A DNA stretch of 63,047 bases, counting the filler, from Collodictyon triciliatum (Eukaryota): assembly GCA_043381765.1 (NCBI GenBank). It is 8 parts of 8 records of this genome, joined end to end, with 100 filler letters (N's around TTAATTAATTAA, not from the genome) between each part and the next. Parts side by side here need not be neighbours in the genome. Positions count along the whole stretch, not along the records: positions 27,910 to 37,107 come from JBHJMP010003120.1; 7 more parts are not named here. The stretch is one strand, 5' to 3'. The translations under genes were made by a program, and so were the position numbers. Each line of letters opens with the position of its first letter. Position 1 is the stretch's first letter. This document shows, piece by piece, positions 18,512 to 55,701 of the stretch. The notes under the pieces are model-generated. The model had not been told where the DNA came from. It did no database searches and was given only the letters and a program-made list of their open reading frames with translations.

Positions 18512-18611
18512 NNNNNNNNNNNNNNNNNNNNNNNNNNNNNNNNNNNNNNNNNNNNTTAATTAATTAANNNNNNNNNNNNNNNNNNNNNNNNNNNNNNNNN
18601 NNNNNNNNNNN

Positions 18612-27809: not shown

Positions 27810-29055
27810 NNNNNNNNNNNNNNNNNNNNNNNNNNNNNNNNNNNNNNNNNNNNTTAATTAATTAANNNNNNNNNNNNNNNNNNNNNNNNNNNNNNNNNNN
27901 NNNNNNNNNAACATAGGAGGCCTCAAGGCAGTCTTCGTTACTTATCCGAAAGGATACTCCAAAGCGAAGGCAACACAAGAACCAGCGCCCACCAAAGATA
28001 GTCCATTTACCCCGCCCCATCCCGTCGCACCGAGAACCAAGGAGCAAGAGCAAACAGCACAAGTCGAATCCAAGCTTGGAACTTCACGCACTAAAGACAG
28101 TCCGAGCAAGCAGGAGCGTATGTTTCTAAAACCGCAAACGCTTATCCATACTCCGGTTAAGCAAAGTCCACTGCCGGCTACGCATGGCTCCGAAACCAGG
28201 GGACGGTGAAGCGCCACTTCCGATAATACCAGACAAACAACGATGTATTGCTTTTTGTCAGAGTCGCCCAGCAAGAAACGCAAGGAAAGTGACCCGTTGT
28301 CCCCTCAAAAGACCCATCCTGTGGAATGAAATAGGATGTAAACCTTGTCTGAGATAGAGGGCTGAAAGGACTCGTCGGAATCGCTTATCGAAGTAACTGC
28401 CATGTGCGTACTTTCATCGACTCGACAACTTTATCCGCTCTTCTGTCAGTCTCGAATACAACCAGAAATCGCGTTGAAGTTGAATCACCTTGGGTAGAAT
28501 AGTCTGCGTGAGATAACACTTTCTTTCTACTATCTTTTTTTCTTTTTTCCTGTTTTTTCTTCCATCCAAAACACAAAACTCCAACCACACAAGCCTGGGG
28601 TTTTCTACTTTCTCATCCACAGCTCATTTTTGTCCTGGAGGCGAAGGCTGTATCCTCGGCTTTATTTTCTCTCTCGATAAACTGTTGAAAAGAAACCCAA
28701 ATGAAAAAAAAAAAAAAACACCCCAACTACCTATACACTACATAAGACTTTGTTTCGTATTTTATGGCCGCACTGTATGATTGCAATGTCATCTATCATG
28801 TGGGAATGCGTATATCTGCAAACTTTATTGAGGTTCCCTAACTCATACGACTTTTGGGTATTCGATTTATTTTAATCTTTTTCTGATGAAGCATCCTTCC
28901 AGAGAAAAAGACGCATGGCCAGCTGAAAAATACCCTCAGTGAATGGTTGGATTTTGTCTAATTACACATGATAGCCATCAAAAAAAATAATGCTAATTTA
29001 ATTATTATTATTATTATTATTGTTATTATTATTGTTATTATTATTATTATTATTG

Positions 29056-29153
<98 letters not shown>

Positions 29154-29174
29154 GCTGGAATTAGCTTTAACCTT

Positions 29175-32100
29175 TTAAGCTGCAGCTTTCTTTTTCCATT
29201 CTACTGATTTTTCAGCGTCCTTCTCGACACCCCATCCATTCTCATAGCACTCAGCCATCATTTGAGCCTGGAACTTTGTGAACTTACCCTGCTCACAATA
29301 TGCGACAAAGTCCGCATCAAATGAAGCAGCGCCGTTTGAAAACAAGAGGGATTTGTTAAATTGACACATTCCTGTGATGTTTCTGATGTGAATATTTCCA
29401 CCCTCCAACTTTCTTGAGCCGATAATCTGAACTGCCTTCATATTTTCGACACTACTGGCATCTGTCAAGTTCACTTGATTGCTTAATTTGGTGAATGCTG
29501 TGGCGTTCTCGACAGGATTTTCTTTCTTTGCGATTAAATTCCCCTGAGTGTAGGTAATTTCTGATTTTTGTAAATCATGTACTTGACTATCGGTAGTTGG
29601 ATTACAAATACGCACTGATTTATCATAACTTCCTGAAGCCAACCAAATTTCCCTATTCGGTCCTTGAATACTGCAAACGCTAGTGACAAACTTCGTAAAC
29701 CCTTCTATTTTTTTAATGAAGGTTGCTGTGGCCAAATCCCAAATACGTATTGTCTTATCATTACTTGCAGAGGCCAACCAACTTTCACCATTCGGTCCTT
29801 GAAATTTACAGATACCGTTCACCTCACGAAGATGACCATTCAGTAATTTGATTTGGTTTCCTGTGGCTACATCCCATATACGTATTGTCTTATCACTACT
29901 TCCAGAAGCCAGCCATATTTCGCCATTCGCTCCTTGAATACTGCAAACACAGTTTACATAGTCTGTATGACCTTCTAATGTTTTGATTTTATTTCCTGTG
30001 GCTATATCCCAAATGCATATCGTTTCATCGTTGCTTCCAGATGCCAACCAGCTTTCACCGTTCGGTCCTTGAATAGTACAGAGATTATTGATAAATCTGG
30101 TGTGGCCCTCCAGTGTTTTAATATGGCATCCCGTAGCTATATCCCATATGCGTATTGTTTCATCATCGCTCCCAGAAGCCAACCAATTCTCACCATTTGG
30201 CCCTTGAATACTGCAAATACATCGCACATAATCTGTATGGCCCTCTATTACTCTTATTTTATTTCCTGTGGCTACATCCCAAATGCGTATTGTTTTATCC
30301 CAACTTCCAGAGGCTAGCAAATTTTCATCATTCGGTCCTTGAATGCTGCAAATACTGTAGACGTACTCTGTGTGACCCTTTAATAAAACAACTTGTCTTC
30401 CCGTGGTAATACTCCATATCCGTACTGTGTGATCACTACTTCCAGAAGCCAACCATATTTCACCATTCGGCCCTTGAATAGTGCAAATACTTACGACAGT
30501 GTCTGTATGACCTTCTAGTGTATCATAAAGAATTCCGAATGTTACATTATTCATATTTGTGTCATCAAAAACACAATCACCAAGCATCGAATTTGTAAAA
30601 TCGACACCATCCAAGTTGGCCCCAGTGAAGTTTGCGCCATCAAGAATTGAACTACTGAGATTTGCATGTGGAATCTTGATGTTTGATAAATCCATCCCAC
30701 TGAACGAAACATTCATGAAATTCAAAATTGTGATTGCATCAGATGCAGCCTTCGATTTGCTCTCATCAGTTCTCGACATGAACACTATTCTGAATAAAAA
30801 TGCAATGATTTGCTCACGATTCCATTCTTCACTCAGTTTTGCATCATCGAGAACTTCATCGATGAATTCCTTAACTCTTGAAAACTCGACAGGCTCTTTG
30901 TTGATTCCAGTTTCTTTTGAATAAAGGGACAAGTACTTGTAGGAGTTTAATGTTCTGGGGTGAATCCATGAGAGTTTATCAGCGAATCTGTCTCTCATTT
31001 CAGCCCAGAATACGAAAGCTTCTTTATGCTGCTTCAGTTCTTTGTAATTCATGTCCAAATACTCGCAACTGCTCCATATTCCGAGATAATCCATGGAATA
31101 TAGTTTACTGAATAAATATATCAGCGTTTTATACAGCTGAATAACTACTTTATACTCATTCTTTTCTTCCATTAGCTTAACGATTCTTTGGCATTGCGAG
31201 CCATGCTTAATTGACATGGAAGTCTTTGTCTCCTTTCTGATTACTGCTGCCTTCTGGAAACAATCGACACACTGAGCAGAACTGCATCACAAATAATCAT
31301 ATGTCACATGTGAATAAGGGTAGTATCGTAACATACTTTATCATTTTTTTTGTTGTTGTTACTATTTTGTTTTTTGTTTTCGATTTTAAATTTTGATTAT
31401 TTTGTTTTTGTATGGTTTTTTGTTCTTATTCTTTACCTTTCAAGCTCAAAGTTTGTTTTACCAACACTTTCAAGGGAAGTTGCGTAATCAACATGCTTTT
31501 CTCCCAGTGTCCTCTTTCGAATCTCCAACGTCTTCGTATAAGCCTCTAAGGCGCCTTTATAGCTGAGATGAATAAAAAAAATTTTTTTTTATTTACAAAA
31601 AAAACAACAATTAAAGCAAGGTGCAGTTTACAAAATTTTCTAACTCTCTCAAGTCATGGCTGATGTCCCCAATCATCTCATAGCAGGCCACAACATTCGG
31701 GTGATTTTCACCGAGGGCGGAAATGAAAATATCCAGAGATTGCTTCAATGAATATGATGCTTCTGTTTTCCTTGTCGAGTACATTATATAGTCAGATTAT
31801 GTAAAAAAAAATATATGAGTCTAAAAGAATAGCTATACATACTTTTCACTTGCGAGATAAACGTTTGCAATAAACTGAATTGTTAAAGCAACAGTTGCAT
31901 GGTTGATTCCCAACGATTTTTCCAGGATTAACTTTGCTTTTTCATAATTTTCTATAGACTCTCCGAACCTAGATTATTATGTCAGATCGAAATTTGCATT
32001 TTGTGGCTCAGGGCAATAAACTGTGGTGAAAATAACGATATTTTACTTCCTTTCGGCAAGATAGACGTGGCCGTAGTTCTGATATGATGTTGCAACAAGA

Positions 32101-35100
32101 GGATGCTCGTTTCCGAATTTTTTTTGTCGAATTTCCATGGATTTTGTGTATTCGGCCATCGCCAACACAATACTATAATATGTGATAGGTGAGCAAGTAC
32201 ATTTGTCTACAGAATTCATCAGTTTTCACTTTTATTCGAATCAAAGTATACGGTCATCAATTTTAAAATGTGAGGCAAGTGTAGTTAAATGTTTACTTGG
32301 ACTGCTTCACATAAACATATCCAAAGCAATCATACGATTGAGCCACTTGCAGATCATTCTCGCCCAGCTGTTTGACTCTCAAATCCAGTGATTTCTTATA
32401 TTTCTCGAGAGCCTCATCAATCCTGCATTTATAAATTTTGTGATGTGTTTTTAAATTGAAAATAATATTTTCATTTACTAGAGGTCTCACTTATCTTGCT
32501 GTTGATAAATGATTCCCATCTCTTCATAAATGGTTGCCATTTGCAAATAATCCTCAAGTTTTTCTACTAGATTGAGACATTTCTTGTAATGAACCATGGA
32601 CTCAGACCAGCTGTTTGATGCGTATAAAAGAAAGAATTCAATTAAAATAGTATTTTATGATGACATGAGTAAATACAAAAACAACATATTACACAATATA
32701 TGCATTTATCTCACTTTTTGAGATTTTTGTAGACACGACCAAGATTCAAGTAATCAGCAGCCTTCAAATCTATTGAATTAAGGATTTTGATAATTCAGTC
32801 ATTTTTTTAATTATCAAGATAGCATTCAAGGTTACGAAGCTACTACCTTCTGCAGGATACTTTCCAAGGCGCACATGAAGAATAGATAACAAAAAAGAGT
32901 TTTCAAATGATTCCAGGAAAAACTCTACCAATAAGTCGCCAACATTATCTAGGGACTGAGTAAAAAAAAAAAAATCATCATGAATCAAACCTAAATCAAT
33001 GAGTAGGGTGATATATCAATATCTTTAACAATAGAAATAAAAAGTAAATACCTTCGCTAGAGCTCCGTAAACATCCTTATAATTTGTAACCCCACTTTCG
33101 TTGATTGCTCTCCAACATGTAAAGAATTCATAGCGATGGCGACCACCAAGCATGGTACTGATAACCTACGAAAATACAGTCCGCTGGTGAAAATATATAT
33201 AGAAGGACTAACACACCGATAAATTATAGGATTTGTATAAAATAAGTAATAGACATGTTTTTGCTTCATGTACTCGACAAGCAAATCAAACGAATTGCCC
33301 TTCAAAAGCTGGTAGCATATCTCAGCGGTAAGCTCCTCATCTACATCGAGCGTGTCAGAATATTGACCAAACAACCATTTTCCGTATCTTTCGTGGGTCT
33401 TTTCCATTTCTTGATTTTCAGAAAAGTAGAGAATCTCTGTGGTCTCCAAAAGCAACTGGTGAAAGTACATGTATCTATTATACATTATATTTTAGAGTTC
33501 ATTTCCCAATCTAACGCATTGCCATAGTACAAAATTCAAAAGTTCAAAGTAAAACCTACCTTCCGTTACGAACAAAAAGCGATTCAATCAGAGTAAAGAA
33601 GAAAGATTTCCTATGTAAAAATATATTTGCATCATATTCTCTCCAATAAAACATGGATGAGTAACGATGTTGAAGGTTTCAAATAAAAATATGACTATAC
33701 CATTCGGCAAGCTCGAATTCTGTGCCGATACAATCTTTCATGTAATTGTCAAAATCACTCTCACTCAAGCCAATACGAGAGACCAACAGAACCTTCATTG
33801 AAGAGGACACATACTCGACATCTGATGATTTTATCATAAGATTGCCCCATTGGCATTATAAAATATGTAATGCGGTAAATTCCATGGAATAAGAGACCCC
33901 ACCTTTTTTATCAAACTTTAGTTTCCATCGCTTGATGATAAATGTGTAAAGTTCTATTACACCCTTTGACGAGAGCAATACACTCAATTCTTCATCAAGT
34001 TTCTCATAAACACCGAAAACTCTGACTTCATCAAGAATTATTCGAAGATAGAGTGGATGGCCTGGGAATTAATATGAAACATTATAAGTGATACTGTCCA
34101 ATAAAACAGGATTATTACTTGTACATATTAATTATAAATTACGCATTACCTGTGTATTTCAATTCAAGCAAAATCATGGCAACTTGCTTTTCGTTCAGAG
34201 TCTTGTCATAGCGAACGAGAAATGATTTGACACTATCTTCAACCTCGCCATCGGTCAACTTTGTGACAGGAATGGGCTCCAAACCACCATGCTCGACAGA
34301 CTTGAAACAATTACATGGGAATTAATAATAATAAAAAAAACATATAACAAATAACACTAGAATTCAAATCTTTTTCATAGCATGCCATTTGGAAGGAGAA
34401 AGCTATTGACAAAGAAAAACCTTGCAGGATTCGTGGGTATGAATGGTCGACACAACCATAGCAACCTTAGCTGGTGTTTCTTTGGGCAACCAGGTTAGCA
34501 GATGCGGAGCTGGCGTTCCTTGTGACGAGTGGATTTGGTTGATTGCATCGATGAGGAAGACAAACTTCTCATCCCTAAAAAAAAAAAAAAAAGTAATGAG
34601 TGTAAAAATAATAGTTTATTTTGAAGATCCACGAAGCATTAGTCATAAGAAAATAAATTAACACGCTTTTTACTCATTTTTCTCCTGAATCATTTTCAGC
34701 AAGCCCTGGAGTCCCTCTTTTTCGTATTCTGACATTTAAATGAAGTAAAAAAAAATTCGAAATTGATATGAAAATTAAAATTGAAAAAACGGAAATATAG
34801 ACAGAAATGTAATTACCAGCTTCTTGCTTCTTCACCCCGATAAAGTTGGCAGAGTTTGTGACCAAAGTCCAGAAGCGAATTGAAACACTAAATAAAAACA
34901 AAATCAAAGAAATTACCAGGAACATCACATGAGTTTCTTTCCGACTCAAATAAAAGGAACTTACCTTTCAACGTAGTTGCTGAGGTTGGTGCATCCGACA
35001 AAATGGAAAAAGACATTCAGTCCAGGAAGCTTCTGCCCTTCAAGGTCTCTCGCTGTAGCAGCCATGAGGGATGACTTTCCAATCCCAGACTCGGCAGCAA

Positions 35101-36952
35101 GCACAACGATTTTGGATTTATCCTTATCCAGCTGATTCATAACCTGACAGAGAGAAAAAAAAGGAACCAAATTAAATTTATTACAAATCAAGCAAAGAAA
35201 AAAGAATAAATTAAAATCGACAGTTTATAATTTATTTTTTCATGTAAACTCACTTGTTCCGTGATTGTCTTGAGAAGCTCCTTTCTTCCGCTAAATCCCG
35301 CCAGTCGATGCATCTTGAACTGGTGCTGCGCTTGGTCTTCAGGGTCTCTCATCTGGTTTAAAGAATTATTTGGAAAAAATTATAAATGACACGTATCTAT
35401 CACCAATCAATATTGAAGCTTTTACACCAATAAAAAAAGATAAAAAAATAATACAGTTTGATTCCCAAAGTCACGTTTGATGGCGTAGGAGAGATGGTAA
35501 GTCACAAAGTCCGAATATTCCTTCGCTCCCTTGTAGACAATATGCCCGAACTTGGCCTTGACTTTCCCTTTGAGCTCCTCCTGCCTCTTACGCTAAAAAA
35601 ATGCAATAAAATACATGTCAAAAAATCAAATCATTACATAAACGTAACAGACTTCACTCGTAAACGAAGATAAAAGAATGTCTATTAATTTTTTACCGCC
35701 TCTTCGCTTTCAGCTTGGAATAGCTTTCTTTCTTCCTCGCTTTGAGCATGTTGGACAGCATAGTGCTCATCACGGAGGTAAAAGAAGGCGCGGCTGCATG
35801 CTGGTTTATCAATCAGACAGGCGTGTTGAATCTGAGCATGTGTTTTGATTAGAGGAATGATTTTTTCTTGCTTTTCAAATATTTATCATGGAGTAAATAC
35901 AATGCATAAAATGTAGAGATTCGGCTCACCTCGTACTCAGTCACACTCAACCCAGGCATTCCGTCGATGAATGGGAAGCGGCTATTGGTTTCACTGCGCC
36001 ATTCCACCCAGACATCCTTCATTGTGGCATCAGGTTTGATATTCAGCAGCTCCTCAAGGCGGGCTTGCTTATTCAGCTCCGTTTTGTTCTGGTCAGGAAT
36101 CCAGCCATAACGCGCACCGAGAGAGCACACAAAGTATGGGCATTTTCCAATGGAGTCCAGACAGCGAATCACAACCTATGAAATAAATAAAAGAAAATTG
36201 AGTTTTTCATTTTATAAAATGCAGCATATTCTAAAAAAATTCATAAAAATAATGTTAATAATATTGTGATTACCCATCCCTCGCTACTGTCCTCAGAAGT
36301 CAGTCCCCAGCGCAAATCGATAAAGACAAGGTCCAGTCCCTTCGATTTCGCAAGCCTTTTCAACCTGACATAAATTATATTGATCTTCTTAATAGAGCTA
36401 TATTATCAAATATTAACAAAAATTATTTAAAAAATAAAGTAGATGACTTACTCAGGGGCTCCATTCTTGAAGAACTCGTCTCTTTCACGCTGCATGTCAC
36501 GAAAAGTGGAGGAAAGGAAAACACGGATGACACGCTCATCAAAGACAATGAGTGGCAATGGTGTCGGTGTCACGTATCTTTGTGGGGCCGGATTCCACTT
36601 CTTGTACTGTCTCTCCTTCAGGTCTTCACGAGCGAGCTTCATCTGTTTTTAATTTGAGATTAGATTTCGCAATTATGAATGAATTTTTATTACGCTCATC
36701 AAGTTATTTAATTTCATTGGTCGATTACCTTGTCAAGAAGAATGCAAGTGCGGATGAGGATGACAGAGCCTTTTTCTTCCAGGCCAAGGCCTGTATGAAT
36801 AAATGTGTTTAATCTTTTCTTGAAAAAAATAACGAAGCATCACTCGATGTAATCAAATTAAAGACAATATATTTCTTGCCTTGAAAAGTGAACGGGGCTT
36901 TTGCTCTTTCGTAGAGCTTCTTGGCAATATCGTACCTCTCATGACATTTTTT
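29175..36952 (-). CDS. NLR-like STAND protein: (TPR-like)-DUF4062-NACHT/P-loop-TPR repeats-pentapeptide repeats-7xWD40-Sel1; 5' end lost at contig end
   Basis: IRVFLSSTFRDMQRERD, IDLRWG, LGARYGWIP and SVTEYEI (DUF4062); Walker A AESGIGKS (about 35075-35095); Walker B FVFLIDAINQ; GHPLYL; TPRs (ALEKYKKSLDLRVKQLGE, TLEIRKRTLGEKH). A phase-2 splice from about 31437 to 31281 joins these in frame to the ORF ending at 29175. Confidence 0.85.
29596..30522 (-). repeat. Seven 135-nt (45-aa) WD40 coding repeats with an IQGPNGExWLASGS insert
   Basis: ccttgaat/a recurs every 135 nt (about 29662, 29797, 29932, 30067, 30202, 30337, 30472). Confidence 0.9.
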
Positions 36953-37011
36953 CTATGATTTGGATGTAAGGTTTTAACTCCCATCACATTTTTTTGATAG
37001 CGGTAAAAAAC

Positions 37012-37107
<96 letters not shown>

Positions 37108-40100
37108 NNNNNNNNNNNNNNNNNNNNNNNNNNNNNNNNNNNNNNNNNNNNTTAATTAATTAANNNNNNNNNNNNNNNNNNNNNNNNNNNNNNNNNNNNN
37201 NNNNNNNAAGAAATCCATGCGTCTCTTATCAAGCCTCAAGGACCTCTCTTTTCCCTTTTTTCTTTTATCTTTATCCCTGTTTTTCTTTTCTATCTCCCAC
37301 ACATCCCTACCTACTTTGGAACTACTTGCCTGATGGTTGAATGAAAGATTGTTGAGACGGGCTCGACAGCTAAGACTTTTAGAATAAAAAAAATGTGATT
37401 GAAGTGATTGAATGACTAGCAATTATAGTATTCATCTTTATTCCTTGCTATATTTGATGTTGAAACGATCGCTAACCTCTTATTCTGATGACCAAGACAC
37501 CAGCCCCATTTTTTCCACTTTTGTTCCGCCCATTATTTTATCTTTGATTTTTGCTTTGAATTCCCTGTGTGACTAAAATTCATTATAAAAAAACAATTTG
37601 TACTTGTGTCCTTGTCTCGCAAATCCCGACCAACTCCTTCAAATCAGTTTGAACAACTTCAGACCCGAATCATTCCCACATATTAAACACACTTTCATCA
37701 TTTCTATAGACACAGTCACTCAATAAATCAAGAACCACTTTGTCTCTGGACCATCAAACCCAAACACCAGTACAACACAACACGACTTTCGAATCCCTAT
37801 AGCGCATGGGCAATTGTTATCTATTAACACAAAGCAAACCAAAAAAAAACCACCGATCAACATATAGGACCAGGAAAACTGAAAAAAACCTAACAAGAAA
37901 ACATAGCTTTAGTTTCATCAAAAAGTGAAGGTTCAAACCTATGCAAGTCTTTAACCTTGTCAGAAAGCCAAAAAACTTAATCGAGAGCGGGGTTGTCCAT
38001 CAATCTCTGGGAATTAATACTAATTGTAAAGATACAAGCAAGGTCAAAAGATGATTCTTTTCAGCAAAGCTAAATATGATCGGCTCTGTTCCTGCCTTGT
38101 TTGATCCCAGGGTTCTGTTTTTACTTACCAAACCCCAACTCAAAACTCTCATAAAACTCATTTAAACATCAAAATAATTATGAATTCAAGTATTTTAATT
38201 GCATATGCTATTTGTCAAGGCTCTCATTTATACAGCAATTCGCGAGTCAAGGAGAACCGGGACGATTCGATTCACGGAGCATCCTGTAGTAGAGCATTTT
38301 TGGCCACTCATCCACAATATCTGAACTACCCAACTCTTTATATTCATTTTATTCTTTTATCACCGTAGCCATAGTCTTAGATTTATGGAATCATTCATAG
38401 TATATATTGGAATCTAATCACATCTCGTACAGCTTGGAACAATTTTCATGGGCCCGACAGCGACTAAGTCTTTGATTGCTCTGCTGCATACATCACACTC
38501 ACTTAGATGGAGTCTTCCAACGACGCAGCCTTATAATACACCCCATTTAGTCAGATACTTGCATCCATATTGGTTTTTTTCTTGTGGTTGCTTTTCTCTT
38601 CTCAACTCGACCTTTTTTTATGGTATTCGCTAATTAAAGAAAAATGAAAACATTTTCTCACCTATATATCATAAGAACATACCCTCTTCCCTCTTAATTT
38701 TTATTTTTCCATTAAGTGAAACTGCCGTCAATATAGCATGCTTGGAAGTTTAATATCAGGATAACACACTAAGCTCCTCATCGCTTCCTGCGCCTGACAT
38801 TGTTGATGAGAAAGGGCAAGTGATCAATTATCTATGGATGTCTCTTTAATATGATTGTTAAGTTTTATCAATCACGGGCTGTGTCAAAATAAATGTCGAT
38901 ATTTATTATTATTTTTCATGTTTTATATACCATACCTAGATGAACCACACTGCCCATAGGATAGAGAAAATGGCTGAGCTGTGGTCAAAAAGAGAGGGAA
39001 AATTCAACTTTAATGACTGCACCCCTACGATTGAATGTTCATTCGGCATCAGAAATGTAATAGTGAAACCTTTTTACCATGAAACTCTATCGAATAATCA
39101 AAGTTTTTCATACTTAGCATATGATGTAATATTATAAAAATAATGTTTATTTAATCTGCAACATTAATAGTTCACTATTTTACTCACCACCACCGAAGAA
39201 GAGGAAGAAATCCGTGTGATCAAAAGGCGAGCACTCAATTTACTGTTTTTGATATTTGTTAGCCCATTATTATATTGATTTACTTCTTTCAAATTAAAGA
39301 ATCGTTTCCATCAACTAATATATTTCATATTCAACAGATTATAAGCAATAGCTGATATACTTGCATAAAATCTTCAAAGGCACTAGTGGGCATGGTAAGA
39401 CTAATGTTTTTGATTTTTTTGGTGAACTCCAAAGAAATATACTTGATTTTATAATTGAATTGGTCACTAAAAATTTTGGAAACATAAAAAACAATAATCC
39501 ATTCTAATAGTTCAGAGATAGTCGCCCTATCAACGCGGCACTTTTAGTCACAAAATCACACTTCAATCAGCCGATACGAAGCATGATACATTTTACATGA
39601 ATTAATACATATGTCTTTTGATTTTATGATTCTAAGCAAACGATAGAGTCTGTTTTTTTATAATCTTGGTAAATTCTAAAATCAAACTTTCATAGGGCAT
39701 ACATGAAATTGGTGATGTATGATACATAAGAAAAGATGTTCGAAAAACAAGAGTGATTGAATTTTACGAGATAAAAAGATTTTAAGAGAATGATACCAGG
39801 TATCTTTTTAATATACAAAGTGACGACAACTGTAATTATTTATGCATTCTCAGAGTGGAATCTAACAAAAGCTTTTCATACTAGTACTTGACGAACTTTC
39901 AAGAAGGGCTCATATTCCCTATCTCATGGCACAAGGGTCTTTGCACTCGCGTTTTTTGGTTTTATACAAGTCATTCTGTGAGTTTTGATCGTTTCATTTT
40001 ATTAAGAATATCTATTTTATTTATCTTATAGATTCAAGTCTTAGGTTATTGAAAAAAATTCAATACATCGAAAAACTCATAATTAAAATGTTCGTCGCAC

Positions 40101-43800: not shown

Positions 43801-44256
43801 GTAGAAAATGACTATGTTAAAAATATTATACTGGACAAATGAACCATTTCATGGGTCTGCATTGGTCGATGTATCATTTAATATCGATTTATTTTTTAAT
43901 TGTAGACTATGTTTCACTTTTTTAATTACTTTTATGAATCAACTGATTTATTCGCAATAATATCAAACAAAATGTTGTGAGCTCATCAATTGATATGAAC
44001 AAGAGTTCTTACATATTGAGAGATTTTTTATATAATGGTTATTGATTTAAGTTCTGTAGTTGGTTTATGTTTATTTATTTTTGAATCAAACGGAAATCAT
44101 TTGAGAGAGAGATACATTCGATATTAGCTTACTAAACTAACATTTTCTTTGGTATAAAAGCTTATCCAAAAATTTCTACATGAATTTGAAAAATTTTCTA
44201 TTTTATTTGTAGAATGACATGGAATTCAATGTCTTTTGCAGCCATGTTGCTGTTGG
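40858..44256 (+). repeat. Diverged non-coding duplicate, copy 1 (upstream of secreted WD40 gene A)
   Basis: Colinear with 46511-50044: shared blocks tttcacttgtaaaa, gccgctgaatgatac..cttcacgcccatacc..ctagaacttgt, gcataccgatatt, atattaggatgt..gcccctatt..tatacttcaa, atgctgagaaa. Confidence 0.9.
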
Positions 44257-46405
44257 GTGTGTTATTAATTTTTATGATTTTCATGTTTATTTTTCGAATC
44301 AAACGCATATTATTTATTTTAAATGTATTTTTAGGATTAATAATATGCAATCCAGTGTGTCATGTTAAAGGACAAGATCACTTGATTCGCACATTGCTAG
44401 GGCACTCTAATCACATTCGTAGAGTAGCTATTTCTTCTGATGGTGCGAAAATCGTTTCTGCAAGTTGGGATACAACAATCAAAATATGGAATCTCTCTGA
44501 TGGAGCTTTAATTCGCACACTGACAGGTCATACTGACAAAGCTGAAGGTATTTCAATTACTACTGATGGTTCAAACATTGTTTCTGGAAGCTTCGATGGG
44601 ACATTAAAAATCTGGAATCTCTCTGATGGAGCTTTGATTCGCACATTGACTGGTCATACCAATTATGTCTACAGCCTTACTATTACTCCTGATGGTTCAA
44701 AAATTGTCTCTGCAAGTAGGGATAGTACAATCAAAATTTGGAATCTTTCTGATGGAGCTTTAATTCACACATTGACTGGCCATACCAACGAAGTTACAAA
44801 TGTTGCTGTTAACCCTGATGGTTCAAAATTTGTTTCTGCAAGTTACGATAATACAATCAAAATTTGGAATCTTTCGGATGGGTCTGTGATTAGCACATTG
44901 GCAGGTCATACAAGTTATGTTGAAGGTGTTACTGTTACTCCTGATGGCTCAAAAATTGTTTCTGGAAGCTTCGATAGTACAATCAAAATCTGGAATCTTT
45001 CTGATGGAGCGTTGATTCGTACATTGATTGGTCACACAAGTGTTGTTTGGAGTGTTGCTATTACTCCTGATGGCTCAAAAATTGTCTCTGGAAGTAATGA
45101 TGGAACAATCAAAATCTGGAATCTTTCTGATGGAGCGTTGATTCGTACATTGATTGGTCACACAAGTGCTGTTTGGAATGTTGCTATTACTCCTGATGGC
45201 TCAAAAATTGTCTCTGGTAGTGCTGATAGTACGATTAAAATTTGGGGAATACCTGAGATGGCTCTTCAATCCCGTTCAAAGAGCAAGTCCCGCTCCAAGT
45301 CCCAACCTAAATCTCAATCTCAATATCAATCCCAAGATGAATACCAATATCAATCCCAAGATGAATACCAATATCAATCTCAAGATGAATACCAATATCA
45401 ATCTCAATTCTCATATCAATCTCAGTTCGAGTCCCAATTCCAATCTCCTTCAGAGTCTCCAGTTGTTCGCTCTGTAGACTGGTATGAAAAGAAAAACTAT
45501 GAAAAATTTGGATTTGAAGTCGAGATTTATAACGGGATTGCAGTGATTTCAGTGCCATTCTGCCAAACACCTAATATCCCGGAGAAGTGCAACGGAGGCT
45601 TCATTCTGACATACAAGTTAGATGGAACTTCTGGCTTGTGGATTGGCCTTAGCAAAATCAAGAATCCGTTCCTGAACCGAGACAACATGTTTGGCTTCAA
45701 CATGATTTTGAATGCGCACTATCTGATAGTCTCTGCACCGAAGTCAAAGTACATAAACACTGAAATCGGTGTTGTGGTTTTGTACACATGGAACGCAGGG
45801 CAAGATGCCTTCGTCAAAGACTCTATCATCCGCTACAGAAATACATCGAAGAATTTCGAACTCGGTGCTGCCATCTCAAATATCAACAACATCGTAGCCA
45901 TCGGAATGCCTGTGTATGACCACTCTAAAGCTGTCACAAACGCTGGATGTGCGCACATATACAAAAGGATGGACAATGGCGGATGGGGCACGAGAGTCAC
46001 CATTACTGCTCCGAACCCAAAGCTGAATGACCGCTTCGGCCAGTCCGTGTCCCTTGGAAGCGTTACAGTATTGGCAGTATCCAACAATCCCGAGACATTG
46101 TCCGACCAAGCTGTGTTTGTCTATGAATTCAAGGACAGAAAATGGAAGGTTTCACAGACCATCACTGACGTCAACAAGCTCGGATTTGGATGGGTTATTG
46201 AATTCAATACAAACGTCCTCTTTGTTTCCGCTGTGAATGATGGCACTACCGCCACCAATTCCGGGTCGATTCTGATCTACACACTTAACAATTATGGCCA
46301 ATATGCGTTTGCATCCACAATCAAGCCAAAGACTGTCGTTGCTGGGAAGCACTTTGGATTCAGCTTCAGCTTTTCTACGGATGGAGACCGACTTGCTGTG
46401 GGAGC
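44214..46405 (+). CDS. Secreted/surface protein A: signal peptide, 7 WD40 repeats, S/Q/Y-rich linker, FG-GAP (integrin-alpha-like) repeats; intron 44257-44334; 3' truncated
   Basis: Spliced N-terminus MTWNSMSFAAMLLLGLIICNPVCHVKG-QD; 7 x 42-aa GH..WN repeats; QYQSQDEY x3; FG..vs...lavgap-like units (MFGFNM..LIVSAP, DRFGQSVSL..LAVS, HFGFSFSFSTDGDRLAVG). Confidence 0.85.
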
Positions 46406-46510
46406 NNNNNNNNNNNNNNNNNNNNNNNNNNNNNNNNNNNNNNNNNNNNTTAATTAATTAANNNNNNNNNNNNNNNNNNNNNNNNNNNNNNNNNNNNNNN
46501 NNNNNTATTT

Positions 46511-50044: not shown

Positions 50045-53000
50045 GTGAGTTTTAAATTATTTGTTTTAATTTTATTGACTTCAAATTACATAGAATTTTA
50101 ATTAATATATTTTCAGGGTTGATACTCCACAGCCAATTGTGCCTTGTTGAAGGGCAAGATGACCAAGTTTACACCATTGGTAGTCCTGGTTACGTTAACA
50201 GTCTTGCTGTTACTCCTGATGGCTCAAAAATTGTTTCCGTAGGTGGTGATAGAACAATCAAAATCTGGAATATTTCTGATGGAGCTTTGATTCGCACATT
50301 GACCGGTCATACTGGTGGGGTTTCCAGTGTTGCTGTTACTCCTGATGGCTCAAAAATTATCTCTGGAAGTGATGATAATACAATCAAAATCTGGAATCTT
50401 TCTGATGGAGCATTGATTCGCACATTGACCGGTCATACTGGTGGGGTTCGTAGTGTTGCTGTTACTCCTGATGGCTCAAAAATTGTTTCCGTAGGTGATG
50501 ATAATACAATCAAAATCTGGAATCTTTCTGATGGAGCTTTGATTCGCACATTGACTGGTCATACTAATATTGTTCGTAGTGTTGCTGTTACTCCTGATGG
50601 TTCAAAAATTGTTTCCGTAGGTGATGATAATACAATCAAAATCTGGAATCTTTCTGATGGAGCTTTGATTCGCACATTGACCGGTCATACTAATATTGTT
50701 CGTAGTGTTGCTGTTACTCCTGATGGCTCAAAAATTGTCTCTGGAGGTGATGATAAAACAATTAAAACCTGGAATCTTTCTGATGGAGCTTTGATTCGCA
50801 CATTGACTGGTCATACTAATATTGTTCGTAGTGTTGCTGTTACTCCTGATGGCTCAAAAATTGTCTCTGGAAGTGATGATATGACAATCAAAATCTGGAA
50901 TCTTTCTGATGGAGCTTTGATTCGCACATTGACTGGTCATACTAATATTGTTCGTAGTGTTACTGTTACTCCTGATGGCTCGAAAATTATTTCTGGAAGT
51001 GGTGATATGACAATCAAAATCTGGAATCTTTCTGATGGAGCTTTGATTCGCACATTGACTGGTCATACCGGTGGTGTTAGCAGTTTTGCTGTTACTCCTG
51101 ATGGCTCAAAAATTGTTTCTGGAGGGGGTGATGGAACAATCAAAATCTGGAATCTTTCTGACGGAGCTTTGATTCGCGCATTGACCGGTCATACTAATGG
51201 GGTTGGCAGTGTCACTGTTACTCCTGATGGCTCAAAAATTATCTCTGGAGGTTATGATAGTACAATCAAAATCTGGAATCTTTCTGATGGAGCTTTGATT
51301 CGCATATTGACTGGCCATACTGGTATTGTTCATAGTGTTACTGTTATTCCTGATGGCTCAAAAATTGTCTCTGGAAGTGATGATAAAACAATTAAAACCT
51401 GGAATCTTTCTGATGGAGCTTTGATTCGCACATTGATTGGTCATACTAATATTGTTCGTAGTGTTGCTTTTACTCCTGATGGCTCAAAAATTGTTTCTGG
51501 AAGTGATGATAAAACAATGAAAACCTGGAATCTTTCTGATGGAGCTTTGATTCGCACATTGACTGGTCATACCGGTGGTGTTTGGAGTGTTACTGTTACT
51601 CCTGATGGCTCAAGAATAGTATCTGGAGGTGGTGATGGAACAATCAAAATCTGGAATTTTTCTAATGGAGCTTTGATTCGCACACTGAATAGCCATATTA
51701 ATCCTGCTTACAGTGTCACTGTTACTCCTGATGGCTCAAAAATTATCTCTGGAGGTGGTGATAAGACAATCAAAATATGGAATCTTTCTGATGGAGCTTT
51801 GATTCGCACTTTGATTGGCCATACTGGTATTGTTTACAGTGTTGCTGTTTCTCCAGATGGATTAAAAGTTGTTTCTGGAAGTTGGGATAATACAATCAAA
51901 TTATGGAATCTTTCTGATGGAGCTTTGATTCGCACATTCAATGGTCATACTTTTTTTGTTCGTAGTGTTGCTGTTACTCCTGATGGCTCGAAAGTTGTTT
52001 CTGGAGGTGGTGATAATAAAATCAAAATATGGAATCTTTCTGATGGAATCTTGATTCGCACATTGAATGGTCATACTGGTGGTGTTCAAAGTGTTGCTGC
52101 TACTCCTGATGCCTCAAAAATTGTTTCTGGAAGTGGTGATAATACAATCAAATTATGGAATCTTTCTGATGGAGGTTTGATTCGCACATTGACTGGCCAT
52201 ACTGGTACTGTTTACAGTGTTGCTATCACTCCAGATGGCTCAAGAATTATTTCTGGAGGCGGTGATTATACAATCAAAATTTGGAATCTTTCTGATGATT
52301 TGATTCGCACATTGACTGGTCATACTAGTGGTGTTAACAGTGTTGCTGTAACTCCTGATGGCTCAAGAATTATTTCTGGAGGCGGTGATCATACAATCAA
52401 AATTTGGAATCTTTCTGATGGAGCTTTGATTCGCACATTGACTGGTCATACTAGTGGTGTTTGGAGTGTTGCTGTAACTCCTGATGTCTCAAGAATTATT
52501 TCTGGAGGCGGTGATTATACAATCAAAATTTGGAATCTTTCTGACGGAACTTTGATTCGCACATTGACTGGTCATACCATTTACGTTTGCAGTGTTGCTG
52601 TCACTCTTGATGGCTCAAAAATTGTTTCAGGCAGCAATGATAGAACAATCAAAATCTGGAATATTTCTGACGGAGCTTTGATTCGCACATTGACTGGTCA
52701 CACTGATATTGTTCGTAGTGTTGCTGTTACTCCTGATGGCTCAAAAATTGTTTCTGGAGGCTGGGATAATACAATCAAAATTTGGAACCTTTGCGGATAT
52801 GGATACTTCGATTGGCTTTCAAGTAAATGCAAACCATGCTCAGAGGGTACATATAACAATATTAACGATCTAAATTCATGTTCTTTGTGTCCTTCTGGAA
52901 CATATAACCCTAGAAATGGCTCTATTATTGAATCTGACTGTCTAGAATGCGATGCTGGCTTATTCAATACTTTTCCAGGCCAATCATTTTGTAGAAGTTG

Positions 53001-55701
53001 TGTCCCTGGAACATATAACCCGAGCAGGAGGTCGAGCTCTCTGTACAATCCTTGTATTAAATGCTTTGCAGGTTCTTATGGGGACAAATTTGGATTGGAG
53101 TCTTGCACTTTGTGTCCTTCAGGAACTTATGGAGTGGATATCACGGCAACCTCGAATTCTTCATGTATAGAATGTGAGCAAGGTACTTACAGCGGGGTTG
53201 AAGGTCAATCTAGATGCCAAGAAAGTAAACCTGGATTTTATTCCCCAAAAAAAGGAGCATCTATTCCATCTCCCTGTCAACCAGGAACCTACTCAAACTC
53301 TACTAAAGCAACCGTTTGCGAAAAGTGCCCAGCTGGCTCTTACAATCCTGATGTTGCATCATCTAGTGTTAGCAGCTGCTTACCATGTCCATTAGGAAGA
53401 TTTTCGTCTGAATCAGGGGCATCAACGTGCGATATTTGTCCAGCTGGTTCTTACAACCCATACCTCGGGCAGACTGGATGCATAAATTGTTCTGACGGAA
53501 CTTACAATCCACGATTTGGTTCAACAAGCCAGTCTTCATGTATCGAATGCCCAGTAGGAACTTATGGTAATGGCGACAGAGATGAATGTTTATCATGTCC
53601 AGCTGGTACATTCAACAGTAATACTGGCTCATTTAATCAAACATCATGTATTTCATGTCCAAATGGAAGCTACAGCTCAGAGAGAGGCGCATCATGCAGC
53701 TTATGCTTATCAGGATTCTATCAAAAAGAAGGAATCACAAAAGACTCAAGTTCATGCTATGCTTGTCCAAAAGGCACATTCAACTCTAACTCCGGCTCAC
53801 ATGAAAACAAATCATGCATTGAATGTCCGCAAGGTACTTGGAATGATAAGGATGGTCAAGCATCATGCACATCATGTCCAGCTGGTACATACAATAATAA
53901 AACTGGCGCATTGAATATATCACAATGTATTGAGTGTGCAAATGGAAGCTACAGCTCAGAGAGAAGCTCATCATGCAGCTTATGTTCATCAGGATTCTAT
54001 CAAAAAGAAGACGTCACAAAAGACTCAAAATCATGCCACGCTTGTCCAAAAGGCACATTCAACTCAATATCCGGCTTATATGGAAACAAATCATGTATTG
54101 TATGTCCACAAGGTACTTGGAATGATAGAGATGGTCAAGCATCATGCACATCATGTCCAACTGGTACATTCAACAACAAAACGGGCTCATTCAATCAATC
54201 ATCATGCATTTCATGTCCAGATGGAAGCTACAGCTCAGCTGGAAGCTTATCGTGCTTTTCATGCTCACCAGGATTCTATCAAAAAGAAGACATCAAGAAA
54301 GACTCTAAATCATGCTATGCTTGTCCAAAAGGCACATTCAACACAAACCCCGGCTCATATGGAAACACATCATGTATTGTATGTCCACAAGGAACTTGGA
54401 ATGATAAAAATGGTCAGGCATCATGTACATCGTGTCCAGCGGGTACATTCAACAACAAAACGGGCTCATTCAATCAATCATCGTGCATATCATGTCTTAA
54501 TGGAAGCTACAGCTCAGAAAGAAGCTCGTCATGCAGCTTATGTTCATCAGGATTCTATCAAAAAGAAGAAGTAATAAAAGACTCAAAATCATGCTATGCT
54601 TGTCCACAAGGCACATTCAACTCGAACTCCGGGTCACATGGAAACGTATCATGCACTGAATGTCCACAAGGTACCTGGAATGATAGAGATGGTCAGGCAT
54701 CATGCACATCATGTCCAGCTGGTACATTCAACAACAAAACTGGCTCATTTAATTCACCGTCATGTGTTTCATGCCCAAATGGAAGCTACAGCACAGAAAG
54801 AAGCGCTTCATGCAGTCTATGCTTATCAGGATTCTATCAAAAAGAAGGAGTAATAAAAGACTCAAAATCATGCTATGGTTGTCCAAAAGGCACATTCAAC
54901 TCAATTTCCGGCTCATATGGAAACTCATCATGCACTGAATGTCCACAAGGTACTTGGAGCGATAAAGATGGTCAAGCATCATGCACATCATGTCCAGCTG
55001 GTACATACAATAATAAAACTGGCACATACAATCAATCATCATGCATTTTGTGTCCAAATGGGAGCTACAGCTCAGAAAGAAGTGCATCATGCAGCTTATG
55101 TTTATCAGGATTCTATCAAAAAGAAGGAATAATAAAAGACTCAAACTCATGCTATTCTTGTCCAAAAGGCACATTCAACTCAAAATCCGGCTCATATGGA
55201 AATAAGTCATGTATTGAATGTCCACAAGGTACTTGGAATGATAAAAATGGTCAAGCATCATGCACATCATGTCCAGCGGGAACATTCAACAACAAAACTG
55301 GCTCATTCAACCAATCATCATGTATTTCATGTCCAAACGGAAGCTACAGCTCAGTTGGAAGCTTATCATGCAGTCTATGTTCATCAGGATTCTATCAAAA
55401 AGAAGATATCACAAAAGACTCAAAATCATGCTACACCTGTCCAAAAGGCACATTCAACTCAAACTCCGGCTCCTATGGAAATAAGTCATGTATTGAATGT
55501 CCACAAGGTACTTGGAGTGATAAAAATGGTCAAGCATCATGCACATCATGTCCAGCGGGTACATTTAACGATAAAACTAGTTCATATAATCAATCATCAT
55601 GCATTTCATGTCCAAACGGAAGCTACAGCTCAGTTGGAAGCTTATCATGCAGTCTATGTTCATCAGGATTCTATCAAAAAGAAGATATCACAAAAGACTC
55701 A
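50002..55701 (+). CDS. Secreted/surface protein B: signal peptide, 21 WD40 repeats, Cys-rich (GCC2/GCC3, ephrin-receptor-like) repeats; intron 50045-50116; 3' truncated
   Basis: Spliced N-terminus MRLNSKSFAALLLLGLILHSQLCLVEG-QD; 21 repeats of GHTxxVxSVAVTPDGSKIVSGxxDxTIKIWNLSDGALIRTLT; then about 970 aa of CPxGT(Y/F)..C..C units. Confidence 0.9.
50179..52790 (+). repeat. 21 tandem 126-nt WD40 coding repeats (one unit 123 nt)
   Basis: Near-invariant ggaatctttctgatggagctttgattcgcacattga every 126 nt. Confidence 0.95.
53590..55701 (+). repeat. 279-nt (93-aa) higher-order Cys-rich coding repeat, about 7.5 copies to contig end
   Basis: caggattctatcaaaaagaa at 53711, 53990, 54269, 54548, 54827, 55106, 55385, 55664. 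Confidence 0.95.

Follow-up and report, generated by a model that had tools for sequence, protein, structure and literature searches.

How a STAND-type gene made of many small exons has come to end in one long intron-free exon with additional repeat sensors, and whether that end was acquired recently, is the question raised by this locus of Collodictyon triciliatum. The window, i.e. the whole 63,047-nucleotide stretch of DNA analysed, consists of eight separate pieces with linkers N44-TTAATTAATTAA-N44 between them; all of the gene that is present lies within the piece at 27910-37107, a 9.2-kb contig, on the minus strand, as do all of its features given below. By using the sequence, two dynamic-programming passes, contig-joint coordinates and a homologue alignment, a gene model of 27 coding exons was built, namely 26 of 51-246 nt and a last exon of 2107 nt (31281-29175), which translate in a single open frame of 1776 codons and end at a TAA stop codon (29177-29175). 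The 26 introns measure 68-155 nt at a GC content of 0.254, 25 being GT-AG and one GC-AG. The first-pass annotation had described more than 20 small exons joined by a 31437->31281 junction to the last exon 31281-29175, and the model reproduces those coordinates identically; its reading of an NLR-like STAND gene of the DUF4062/NPHP3/TEP1/TTC41 kind is borne out by the model and the domain order, but it had missed that the gene is 5′-truncated by the contig end. As the best explanation, which we regard as likely, the locus holds a single gene that lacks its 5′ end here and belongs to a multigene family of a diphyllatean-type protist, and its composite arm is an old family trait, with a single origin in the ancestor of what is now a subfamily of at least four diverged members.

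At the truncated end, the first coding exon in the contig (36880..36952) is an open frame that joins exon 2 over the GC-AG intron (36879-36791), and the intron upstream of it enters (ATT)n and then passes the contig end. Exon 2 (36729..36790), a linker past the presumed CH domain, matched residues 314-339 of P0132 at 42% identity by tblastn; P0132, like P0153 and P0154, is an unannotated transcriptome ORF of Diphylleia rotans in EukProt. Exons 1 and 2 together align to P0132 directly after its CH domain (Pfam, N-terminus, 2.4e-12), and the N-terminus of P0153 resembles that of P0132 by eye in the alignment; the corresponding CH domain of the gene probably lies on exons beyond the contig end. 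The whole alignment to P0132 is collinear, with 918 of 1776 aligned residues identical (52%) and zero indels at exon junctions.

Exons 3-6 (35697..36642) encode a TIR-like NADase domain (DUF4062/NIR/TeTIR), detected as Pfam DUF4062 on two exons (20.2 and 24.1 bits) and with its catalytic Glu codon at 35932-35930. A homologue, P0136, matched the TEP1 TIR crystal chain 11gz_A at 3e-18, and Aplysia TEP1 (P0164) matched it at 1.4e-58. In a MAFFT alignment, equivalents of all nine residues F902, S905, R908, R914, R942, W943, C959, R976 and E1008, which were tested in TEP1 (bioRxiv 10.64898/2026.09.21.753143; 10.64898/2026.05.01.722283), are kept, so that the catalytic residues are conserved by sequence. 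Yet full-length human NWD1, NWD2 and NPHP3 were reported in 10.64898/2026.05.01.722283 to have no NADase activity in vitro; residue conservation is therefore no guarantee of activity, and the head is best called a putative NADase.

A linker on exons 7-8 (35254..35592), collinear with P0132, leads from the head to a NACHT-like P-loop NTPase on exons 9-13 (34150..35143), with Pfam NACHT/AAA_16/NPHP3_N on exon 9 and NACHT on exon 12 (NACHT 20.9 and 13.7 bits on the two exons) and both Walker A (35095-35072) and Walker B (34561-34544) present. It is followed by a helical/winged-helix arm on exons 14-19 (32847..34061), 55-59% identical to the D. rotans homologues, and by a TPR array on exons 20-26 (31437..32769) with one 42-aa unit per exon and TPR_12 on two exons (about 20 bits per TPR exon). 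DUF4062, NACHT and TPR_12 fall singly under the cut-offs because the domains are divided among exons; full-length homologues exceed the Pfam cut-offs for these domains (TPR_12 at 88-130 bits), which upholds, with the per-exon matches, the earlier assignment of all three to the small exons. Exons 22-26 are 126 nt each, and exons 21-26 and exon 27 all begin in phase 2, i.e. the last exon does keep the TPR register, as had been proposed. With one unit per exon and a constant phase, this array would have grown by exon duplication.

The intron-free last exon, exon 27 (29175..31281, 2107 nt with the stop, a 703-codon ORF), starts at the acceptor at 31281, which gives a gap-free alignment with P0132, and its AlphaFold model (mean pLDDT 79) predicts helices, a beta-helix, a seven-bladed propeller, a disordered linker and a small domain. 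Exon residues 1-190 (30717..31281) form a TPR-like helical continuation, modelled as helices at residues 3-190 and 21-36% identical to homologues, although no Pfam TPR match was found in these 190 residues. Next come a pentapeptide-repeat beta-helix (30537..30710; PF00805, 52.5 bits versus a cut-off of 20.2), modelled as one-residue strands every five residues at 193-250, and seven WD40 units of 45 aa each (29592..30521), for which Pfam WD40 gave 192.5 bits (2.4e-58) in six stretches and the unit alignment seven units, with the propeller modelled at 264-561 (pLDDT about 90). By TRF the WD40 array has a period of 135 nt (6.5 copies); its units are mutually 56-79% identical in DNA and carry a family-specific a-b loop three residues longer, and the array would have expanded as an intron-free unit was duplicated. 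A predicted disordered linker (29400-29591; pLDDT <50 at 566-629) and a small C-terminal domain (29178..29399; pLDDT 80-90 at 630-703), the latter kept in P0132, P0153 and P0154, complete the protein. Thus a pentapeptide-WD40-Sel1-like part does sit in one intron-free exon; the pentapeptide stretch and seven WD40 repeats of the first-pass annotation stand, but its Sel1 repeat, the last 28 residues (29261-29178), is sub-threshold (26.3 bits versus a cut-off of 30.7, E 1e-5), and the two sensor types that it named are actually three different repeat sensors. It was also right that the WD40 units vary at the positions of a secreted family, since both share GHT+1, +2, +4 and the S-x-D-x turn, which are columns 7, 8, 10, 11 and 29 here and columns 6, 7, 9, 25 and 27 in the 19 units of the ORF 50056-55749, while five of the gene's ten most variable columns lie elsewhere, in strand d and the c-d loop.

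Splice joints were taken from spliced contigs of two public runs, X1 and X2, whose RNA nature is a guess, and 15 of 38 joints were listed. Among these, eight coincide exactly with model introns, and three further ones, 31437/31281 included, come from a diverged copy, in which the unaligned letters are the expected exonic bases each time, such as the 13 letters (2+11 exonic bases) between 36788->36891 in X2. The joint 36642->36729 is present in both runs, joints were found for every intron in 35697..36642 (exons 3-6), and others lie in the linker (35592->35697 and 35350->35453), the NTPase (34728->34817) and the helical arm (33163->33253, with X2 record 9 as further evidence); a 704-nt contig with 0-3 differences covers exons 17-22. 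The gene is real and, with the runs presumed to be RNA, expressed, as several close copies represented in the spliced contigs appear to be. At the critical junction the diverged-copy contig (X2) joins 31259->31442 in register, with 27 letters between (22+5 exonic bases), but no own-copy contig crossed 31437/31281 among the 15 of 38 joints listed, so the proposed check came out in favour by way of the diverged copy together with the homologues. That a STAND gene ending in TPRs is instead followed by a pentapeptide-WD40 gene in its own right, the ORF 29175-31217, is suggested by the length of this ORF, its freedom from introns, an in-frame Met near its start and a last intron that is the longest of all (155 nt). 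Against this, the frame is unbroken over a canonical GT-AG intron whose phase is that of the five TPR introns before it, the alignment over the junction is gap-free to three transcript-derived ORFs, the diverged copy's contig bridges it, and the TPR-like helices extend 190 residues into the exon; two genes are hence hardly credible.

The age of the arm is told by its relatives. Three D. rotans transcripts, P0132 (2619 aa), P0153 (2401 aa) and P0154 (1849 aa), are 52%, 40% and 40% identical to the gene and have TPR, pentapeptide and WD40 repeats with the same C-terminal domain, in the same order from TIR-like head to Sel1-like end, and with the long WD40 a-b loop and the pentapeptide block of the gene. 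They differ in a higher number of WD40 units (in P0132 at least 15 were read, versus 7 here) and, in P0154, an extra MIB/HERC2-type tail; a literature search found no publication describing them. In a tree of 328 columns from the NTPase/helical region, these four arm-bearing proteins, the only ones known, form one group with a support of 85/95, which is not at the starred level. Identities drop in parallel across regions, and of five regions compared, P0153 is farthest away in four. Because the four group together and their heads and tails have diverged alike, the arm was by sequence assembled once, long ago, and it would have co-evolved with the rest of the protein since. A genomic ORF, P0023, has the same big exon at 72% identity, beginning in non-homologous sequence just 5′ of the shared exon start and running uninterrupted into the WD40s. 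The paralogues lacking the tail that the first-pass annotation wanted searched for were found as TPR-only ORFs; these are Trinity ORFs and possibly truncated, which affects the direction of change, not the age. The tail-bearing members nest inside the TPR-type family, which fits the tail having been added to an older TPR-type gene, the direction that had been suggested.

What does not survive is the claim that the addition was recent, with retroposition, ectopic recombination or HGT bringing a pentapeptide-WD40 module into a STAND gene that was already old and rich in introns. The module does come as one 2.1-kb intron-free exon after 26 small ones, TPR-only relatives are known, and GC3 is 0.372 in the last exon and 0.314 in its WD40 part versus 0.484 in exons 1-26, so that the two portions are somewhat unlike in composition. 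But the shift runs towards the genome's own AT-rich background, and long ORFs without introns are nothing unusual in this assembly (2.3 and 5.7 kb, the latter nearby). Further, the intron-free part opens within TPR-like helices about 190 residues ahead of the pentapeptide repeats, and therefore does not start at the module border; its WD40 units are merely 56-79% identical in DNA; and no poly(A) tract, target-site duplication or foreign composition was found at the locus, where the flanking arrays are (ATT)n microsatellites. Above all, the arm is shared with three D. rotans paralogues at 40-52% and with the 72% genomic relative, and its bearers are a single tree group, so the full architecture, whose great age had been named as grounds for refutation, is old within the lineage; recent capture is largely refuted and very improbable.

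Ancient shuffling or transfer may lie behind the assembled arm, or else its 3′ introns may have been lost. One form of the best explanation commits itself to an origin, by bacterial transfer or shuffling from another host gene, and holds that an intron-free pentapeptide-WD40 cassette like those of cyanobacterial STAND proteins joined the end of a TPR-type gene in the subfamily ancestor. Of 119 best hits of the last exon in bacteria or fungi, six have a P-loop NTPase, pentapeptide repeats and WD40 repeats 30-120 residues later, and those with a named source are cyanobacterial; in such proteins (e.g. P0038, P0070, P0106 and P0112, compared over P-loop, pentapeptide stretch and first WD40) the order is as here and the WD40 units are 34-39% identical to the gene's, but they are prokaryotic single ORFs and the pattern occurs in only those six of the hits examined. 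Cyanobacterial and fungal HET-E-type units share 35-45% identity with the gene's, and TEP1-like ones, those of a D. rotans TEP1-like protein included, just 26-31%; TEP1-like WD40 proteins form a separate tree group (93/86), so a TEP1-like ancestor did not supply the propeller, and the WD40 array is without introns where each TPR unit has one. Nevertheless, consensus-like WD40 repeats are alike regardless of descent, no specific donor is apparent among the best hits, the composition is host-like, 3′ intron loss gives an equal gene structure, and the units have the longer family-specific a-b loop, which cyanobacterial and fungal units presumably lack, judged against the canonical unit. A captured ancient cassette is a tentative proposal, rather doubtful as it stands.

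Besides the D. rotans ORFs, the known systems close to the gene include the TeTIR/NIR (DUF4062)-NACHT STAND family, i.e. human TEP1, NWD1, NWD2, TTC41 and NPHP3 (bioRxiv 10.64898/2026.05.01.722283, 10.64898/2026.09.21.753143 and 10.64898/2026.09.04.749371), in which a TIR-like head likewise stands directly before a NACHT-type NTPase, with a helical arm and repeats after it. Like TEP1, the gene retains the catalytic Glu and the RWG loop, unlike NPHP3, which according to 10.64898/2026.09.21.753143 lacks that Glu, and its N-terminal extension is probably of CH type, unlike the TROVE-vWA extension. The C-terminal arms are described as WD40 or TPR type in the TeTIR preprint; unlike these, the present subfamily has TPR and WD40 in tandem, separated by a pentapeptide beta-helix, and closes with a Sel1-like part. 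A 1567-aa JGI metagenomic ORF, P0172, GC-rich, probably bacterial and about 24% identical to the gene, has the same head and TPR-then-WD40 order (Pfam DUF4062 41.3, TPR_12 57.7 and WD40 135.7 bits) and keeps the motif with the catalytic Glu, so two repeat types behind a DUF4062 head are not unique to the protist; of the 48 Pfam families that matched it, the 25 listed included no pentapeptide family, and neither did its precomputed list. APAF-1 and plant TNLs also combine an effector head, a STAND NTPase and a repeat sensor, and oligomerisation activates the head, according to 10.64898/2026.05.01.722283 and 10.64898/2026.09.21.753143. They serve as working analogies, since their NTPase clade is NB-ARC and their heads or sensors differ, and homology is claimed for the STAND core only.

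NPHP3 is a ciliary protein, and the gene could instead be a structural or ciliary/cytoskeletal scaffold or regulator like it, not an immune one, with the repeats as docking platforms and a head that is non-catalytic or has a housekeeping NAD-linked role, a reading that we consider possible though unlikely. The CH domain of the closest homologue (2.4e-12) hints that the setting is cytoskeletal, not immune, TPR_NPHP3 matches, below cut-off, show an NPHP3-type likeness of the TPRs, and the human NWD1, NWD2 and NPHP3 results in vitro (10.64898/2026.05.01.722283) point the same way. Speaking against it are the nine TEP1-tested residues, kept 9/9 with the Glu included, a family expanded to at least eight distinct D. 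rotans transcript clusters, the WD40 copy number of 7 here versus at least 15 in P0132, variability centred on GHT+1, +2, +4 and the S-x-D-x turn, and the apparent expression of several close copies (runs presumed RNA).

In domain order, the protein runs from a probable CH domain through the putative TIR-like NADase head, NACHT-like NTPase, helical arm, TPRs, pentapeptide beta-helix, WD40 propeller and disordered linker to a small Sel1-like domain at the C-terminus. In a mechanism modelled on APAF-1, plant TNLs and TEP1, the repeat arm would hold the NTPase off at rest; a ligand bound in the TPR groove, on the top face of the propeller or at both would free it, NTP-dependent oligomerisation would then gather the TIR-like heads, and the gathered heads would cleave NAD+, causing depletion or a signal. 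Such ligand sensing, oligomerisation and NADase activity would make the gene, plausibly, a candidate immune receptor of this protist family.

The gene under study, an NLR-like STAND gene, is encoded on the minus strand, where a 703-codon ORF (29175–31286) is preceded upstream by short open segments lying between AT-rich stretches with GT..AG ends. Exon borders were taken mostly from two automatic dynamic-programming models, and eight were corrected by the sequence itself, by splice-like joints in contigs assembled from public sequencing runs, and by alignment to P0132, a 2619-aa transcript ORF of Diphylleia rotans; a 25-nt exon of the automatic model proved spurious and was dropped during this correction. 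The final model comprises 27 coding exons, of which exons 1–26 measure 51–246 nt and exon 27 (31281–29175) 2107 nt, and 26 introns of 68–155 nt with a GC content of 0.254. Of these introns 25 are GT-AG and one, between exons 1 and 2 (36791–36879, minus strand), is GC-AG, the sole non-GT donor, and the joined reading frame stays open over 1776 codons. Phase 2 is the starting phase of exons 21–26 as well as of exon 27, and exons 22–26 are 126 nt apiece; thus one exon corresponds to one 42-residue TPR unit, and the last exon begins at the equal point of such a unit. A reading of the first exons as 5′ UTR was dropped, as exons 1 and 2 are coding and match P0132 directly downstream of its CH domain (Pfam CH, 2.4e-12, within the first 355 residues). 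Because only intron, (ATT)n and the contig end lie upstream of exon 1, the gene is 5′-truncated here, and the CH-domain exons that would form its missing start are probably located elsewhere.

The window is made up of eight pieces, mostly of ~9.2 kb, joined by seven N44-TTAATTAATTAA-N44 linkers (9210–9309, 18512–18611, 27810–27909, 37108–37207, 46406–46505, 55702–55801 and 59828–59927), plus one 422-N run (1400–1821). As the gene lies wholly inside the piece 27910–37107 (9198 nt), neighbouring pieces carry no genomic context for it, and as the pieces are separate contigs, 'genes' across a linker are not genomic neighbours. An (ATT)51 array (29001–29153) begins 22 nt past the stop codon, and an (ATT)32 array (37013–37107) sits inside the intron that precedes exon 1, reaching the contig end, where it probably caused the assembly break. 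On another contig, the stretch 2001–4000 has a GC content of 0.61–0.63, versus 0.25–0.45 in the rest of the window.

Splicing was assessed with reads of one study, three small runs for which the label 'RNA?' is a guess and in two of which 0.08–0.11 of the sampled words were present; contigs were aligned to 29000–37100, 15 of 38 joints were listed, and uncovered stretches were not counted as evidence. Among the joints listed, at least eight fall exactly at model introns, allowing for the tool-stated shift (exons 2/3, 3/4, 4/5, 5/6, 6/7, 7/8, 10/11 and 17/18). At least three more come from a ~92%-identical copy, with unaligned letters equal to the exonic bases expected for in-register splicing: exons 1/2 have 13 such letters, exons 8/9 have 23 and exons 26/27 have 27, the last at a joint 31259->31442 where 22+5 exonic bases are expected. 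For the window's own copy, the joint 31437/31281 is not among the 15 of 38 listed. A 704-nt contig of run X2, with 0–3 differences, spans exons 17–22 and carries 164 letters in place of exons 19 and 20 (109+55 nt). The intron 33166–33254 (minus strand) is retained in this contig, its neighbouring introns being removed, and is spliced in another one. Since contigs that skip introns must come from cDNA, expression follows for the gene itself or for very similar copies. Over the head and NTPase exons (34965–36642, minus strand), the ~92% copy was found at 5–20× the depth of the exact copy in runs X1 and X2; this copy is a close paralogue or else a related strain's version of the gene.

The head of the protein is a DUF4062 domain, which is equated with NIR and TeTIR and described as a TIR-like NADase (10.64898/2026.05.01.722283, 10.64898/2026.09.21.753143, 10.64898/2026.09.04.749371). 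Since introns split the domain, its single-exon Pfam scores (exon 3, 20.2 bits, model positions 1–18; exon 5, 24.1 bits, positions 46–73) stay below the cut-off of 24.7, and collinear homologues score 38–54 bits. Against solved structures, exon 5 alone gave only chance-level matches (TEP1 at E 1.6); the homologue P0136 and the Aplysia TEP1 protein P0164 matched the TEP1 TIR crystal chain 11gz_A at 3e-18 and 1.4e-58, respectively. By mapping residues from the gene's protein to P0164 (MAFFT) and on to the human TEP1 chain, with the offset of 893 checked at R908, R954 and R976, all nine equivalents of TEP1 F902, S905, R908, R914, R942, W943, C959, R976 and E1008 were found to be identical. The catalytic Glu (E1008 equivalent) is residue 221, encoded by the codon 35932–35930 (minus strand); this equivalence is based on the P0164 alignments because the HMMER alignment of P0136 with TEP1 is shifted by five residues around the Glu. 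With all tested catalytic residues kept, the head is predicted to be an NAD+ hydrolase, and it lies directly upstream of the NTPase, as in the TeTIR/NIR-NACHT STAND family.

On the NTPase exons, NACHT (20.9 bits on exon 9, 13.7 bits on exon 12), NPHP3_N (18.1 bits) and AAA_16 (exon 9) each score below their own cut-offs, as do the TPR_12 matches on the TPR exons, because introns split the domains; in homologues NACHT, NPHP3_N and AAA_16 are matched at 1e-4 to 1e-9, and the full-length collinear ones pass the cut-offs. MAFFT alignment placed Walker A at 35095–35072 and Walker B at 34561–34544 (both minus strand), and 'NACHT-like' is the safe wording for this domain. Orthology to NPHP3 was considered for the TPRs, with TPR_NPHP3 matched at 13.8 bits on one exon and at 41–60 bits in homologues, all below the cut-off of 100. 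It was rejected on that sub-threshold match and on the catalytic Glu, which is kept here and is described as absent from NPHP3 (10.64898/2026.09.21.753143). Nor is the gene an NLR in the strict sense of NACHT/NB-ARC plus LRR, as no LRR family is among the Pfam matches listed for any exon (one list for the last exon holding the best 25 of 47 families).

Behind the switch, the last exon continues the TPR register and then carries pentapeptide repeats (PF00805, 52.5 bits versus a cut-off of 20.2, exon residues 208–240) and WD40 repeats (192.5 bits), and ends in a single Sel1-like match at the extreme C-terminus (PF08238, 26.3 bits, sub-threshold to the cut-off of 30.7, E 1e-5). Arrays of several copies are the rule for Sel1 repeats. 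Among the arm-bearing D. rotans proteins, P0132 and P0154 retain the motif, and a third, P0153, shows it more weakly. Modelled with AlphaFold (5-row alignment, mean pLDDT 79), the last exon is predicted to form helices at residues 3–190, a beta-helix-like part at 193–250, a seven-bladed propeller at 264–561 (pLDDT ~90), a disordered stretch at 566–629 and a small helical domain at 630–703. The canonical WD40 unit is 42 aa, so the seven units here, of 45 aa each, are three residues longer; the extra residues fall in the a-b loop, a trait common to the D. rotans proteins. The units are 56–79% identical in DNA (mean 69%) and 40–76% in protein, with TRF matches of 70–73%. HET-E-type arrays have very high unit identity, and only a few positions of the top face vary. 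In the gene under study the hot columns are GHT+1, +2, +4 and the S-x-D-x turn, but strand d is variable too. The claim of the first-pass annotation that the same positions vary as in the window's secreted WD40 family held for GHT+1, +2, +4 and the S-x-D-x turn. That family is represented by two intron-free plus-strand ORFs running off contig ends, at 44190–46457 (755 codons) and 50056–55749 (1897 codons), each with a hydrophobic N-terminus followed by many 42-aa WD40 units and the second continuing into Cys-rich repeats; their WD40s are 30–37% identical to those of the NLR-like gene, yet vary at the same positions.

By an exhaustive search of 1.84 billion representatives, exon 5 (82 aa) recovered 13 proteins, the long ones being all D. 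rotans Trinity ORFs from EukProt; with the P0132 head and arm as query, 24 proteins were recovered. P0132 aligns collinearly to the whole model with 918 of 1776 residues identical (52%) and zero indels at exon junctions, exons 26/27 included. A word-based search with last-exon residues 1–250 returned only nine bacterial pentapeptide proteins and missed P0132, which the exhaustive search found. Within the window, to which the paralogue search was limited, the sole matches were the unrelated secreted WD40 ORFs (30–37% identity). Two further D. rotans proteins, P0153 (2401 aa) and P0154 (1849 aa), combine TPRs, the same pentapeptide block, long-loop WD40s and the same C-terminal domain. Beyond its Sel1-like end, P0154 has an extra tail (residues ~1620–1849) that contains repeated Trp-rich segments, and PF06701, the MIB/HERC2 family, is in the precomputed Pfam list of P0154; some members thus have a longer arm still. 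The TPR-type member P0139 (D. rotans) has ~1170 extra residues (~1140–2314) with only a weak SPO22-like Pfam match, which may be a different sensor arm.

The first-pass annotation had described a composite-armed gene and explained it by recent capture of a WD40 module into an older intron-rich STAND gene; the architecture is real, and its recency is not borne out. A tree of 16 rows and 328 columns of the NTPase/helical region, which left out P0172 (no match in the region), three shorter isoforms (P0135, P0137 and P0141), and sequences that were fragments or of low complexity (P0131, P0133, P0134, P0138, P0140, P0142 and P0143), placed the four arm-bearing proteins in one group (85/95) within a diphyllatean family (89/94) that is otherwise TPR-only, and the TEP1-like WD40 proteins in a separate group (93/86). 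Pairwise identities drop in parallel from the NTPase region (55–71%) to the tail (20–37%), with P0153 the most distant in four of five regions compared. A 392-aa ORF on a 1.85-kb Logan contig (P0023), 72% identical to the last exon, has its own start in non-homologous sequence, immediately ahead of the point where the exon begins, and reads through to the WD40s with no break. The shared arm, the single group, the parallel divergence and P0023 together indicate that the arm is a stable, old trait of the subfamily; an old full architecture is what the first-pass annotation itself had named as refuting its reading. For the capture reading, the last exon does differ in GC3 (0.372, and 0.314 in its WD40 part, versus 0.484 in exons 1–26); this shift is toward the host background, the two other intron-free WD40 ORFs having 0.256, and long intron-free ORFs are common here (2.3 and 5.7 kb). 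With units only 56–79% identical at the DNA level, the WD40 array has undergone no very recent expansion.

Exon duplication built up the TPR array, and repeated copying of an intron-free unit the WD40 array. As to the source of the arm, six of the 119 best hits from bacteria or fungi show the order NTPase–pentapeptide–WD40, those with a named source being cyanobacterial (local phmmer), and the gene's WD40 units are 35–45% identical to the bacterial/fungal type versus 26–31% to the TEP1-like type, which hints at an ancient bacterial-type cassette; the unit likeness is weak evidence because WD40 repeats are consensus-like. STAND proteins usually carry one repeat type. The metagenomic ORF P0172 also has DUF4062, TPR_12 and WD40 in that order, so two repeat types behind a DUF4062 head are not unique to this protist. 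A search of Dyrka et al. 2014 (PMC4986451) turned up nothing on proteins that combine different repeat types.

By analogy with APAF-1, plant TNLs and TEP1, from which the preprints argue such a logic of arm, NTPase and head, the arm would hold the NTPase off at rest until a ligand binds, upon which oligomerisation would activate the NADase heads. An immune-like receptor role is a tentative possibility rather than an expectation. In its favour count the expansion of the family in D. rotans (at least eight transcript clusters), the variable WD40 copy number, the expression of several close copies and the hot columns shared with the window's secreted WD40 family; against it count the CH domain of the closest homologue, the NPHP3-like TPRs and the lack of NADase activity in vitro reported for full-length human NWD1, NWD2 and NPHP3 (10.64898/2026.05.01.722283). 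A wider reading, which as a whole we regard as unlikely, is that Diphyllatea (CRuMs), protists that branch deeply, own an expanded, NADase-armed NLR-like repertoire with a CH-domain anchor in front, that one subfamily chains a TPR solenoid, a pentapeptide beta-helix and a WD40 propeller behind one NACHT switch, and that the pentapeptide–WD40 cassette is an ancient acquisition of bacterial STAND type. If it were true, one receptor would integrate at least two cues, or guard a cytoskeletal target, before NAD+ depletion.

Not until preprints of 2026 was the DUF4062 (NIR/TeTIR) head recognised as a TIR-like NADase; they present its eukaryotic carriers as NACHT proteins with one or the other arm type. 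The TeTIR preprint describes arms of either WD40 or TPR type, and the parts consulted make no mention of a tandem TPR–pentapeptide–WD40 arm (10.64898/2026.09.21.753143), whereas in the present gene both repeat types stand in tandem. EukProt was also screened for the NIR preprint, in which eukaryotic NLR-like carriers number in the thousands (10.64898/2026.09.04.749371); our literature search on Diphylleia with NACHT or WD40 found nothing relevant, and these proteins may sit in the supplementary table of that preprint. Because recent domain capture is not shown, the gene no longer serves to illustrate receptor innovation while it happens. Together with its Diphylleia relatives, it represents a third layout, in which both arm types are joined in tandem by a pentapeptide beta-helix, all tested catalytic residues are intact and the closest relative bears a CH-type N-terminal extension. 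This layout is a natural test of a STAND switch reading more than one sensor and a clean case of two repeat arrays in one gene with different growth modes, and it widens the range of expanded NLR-like families to a lineage distant from animals, plants and fungi.
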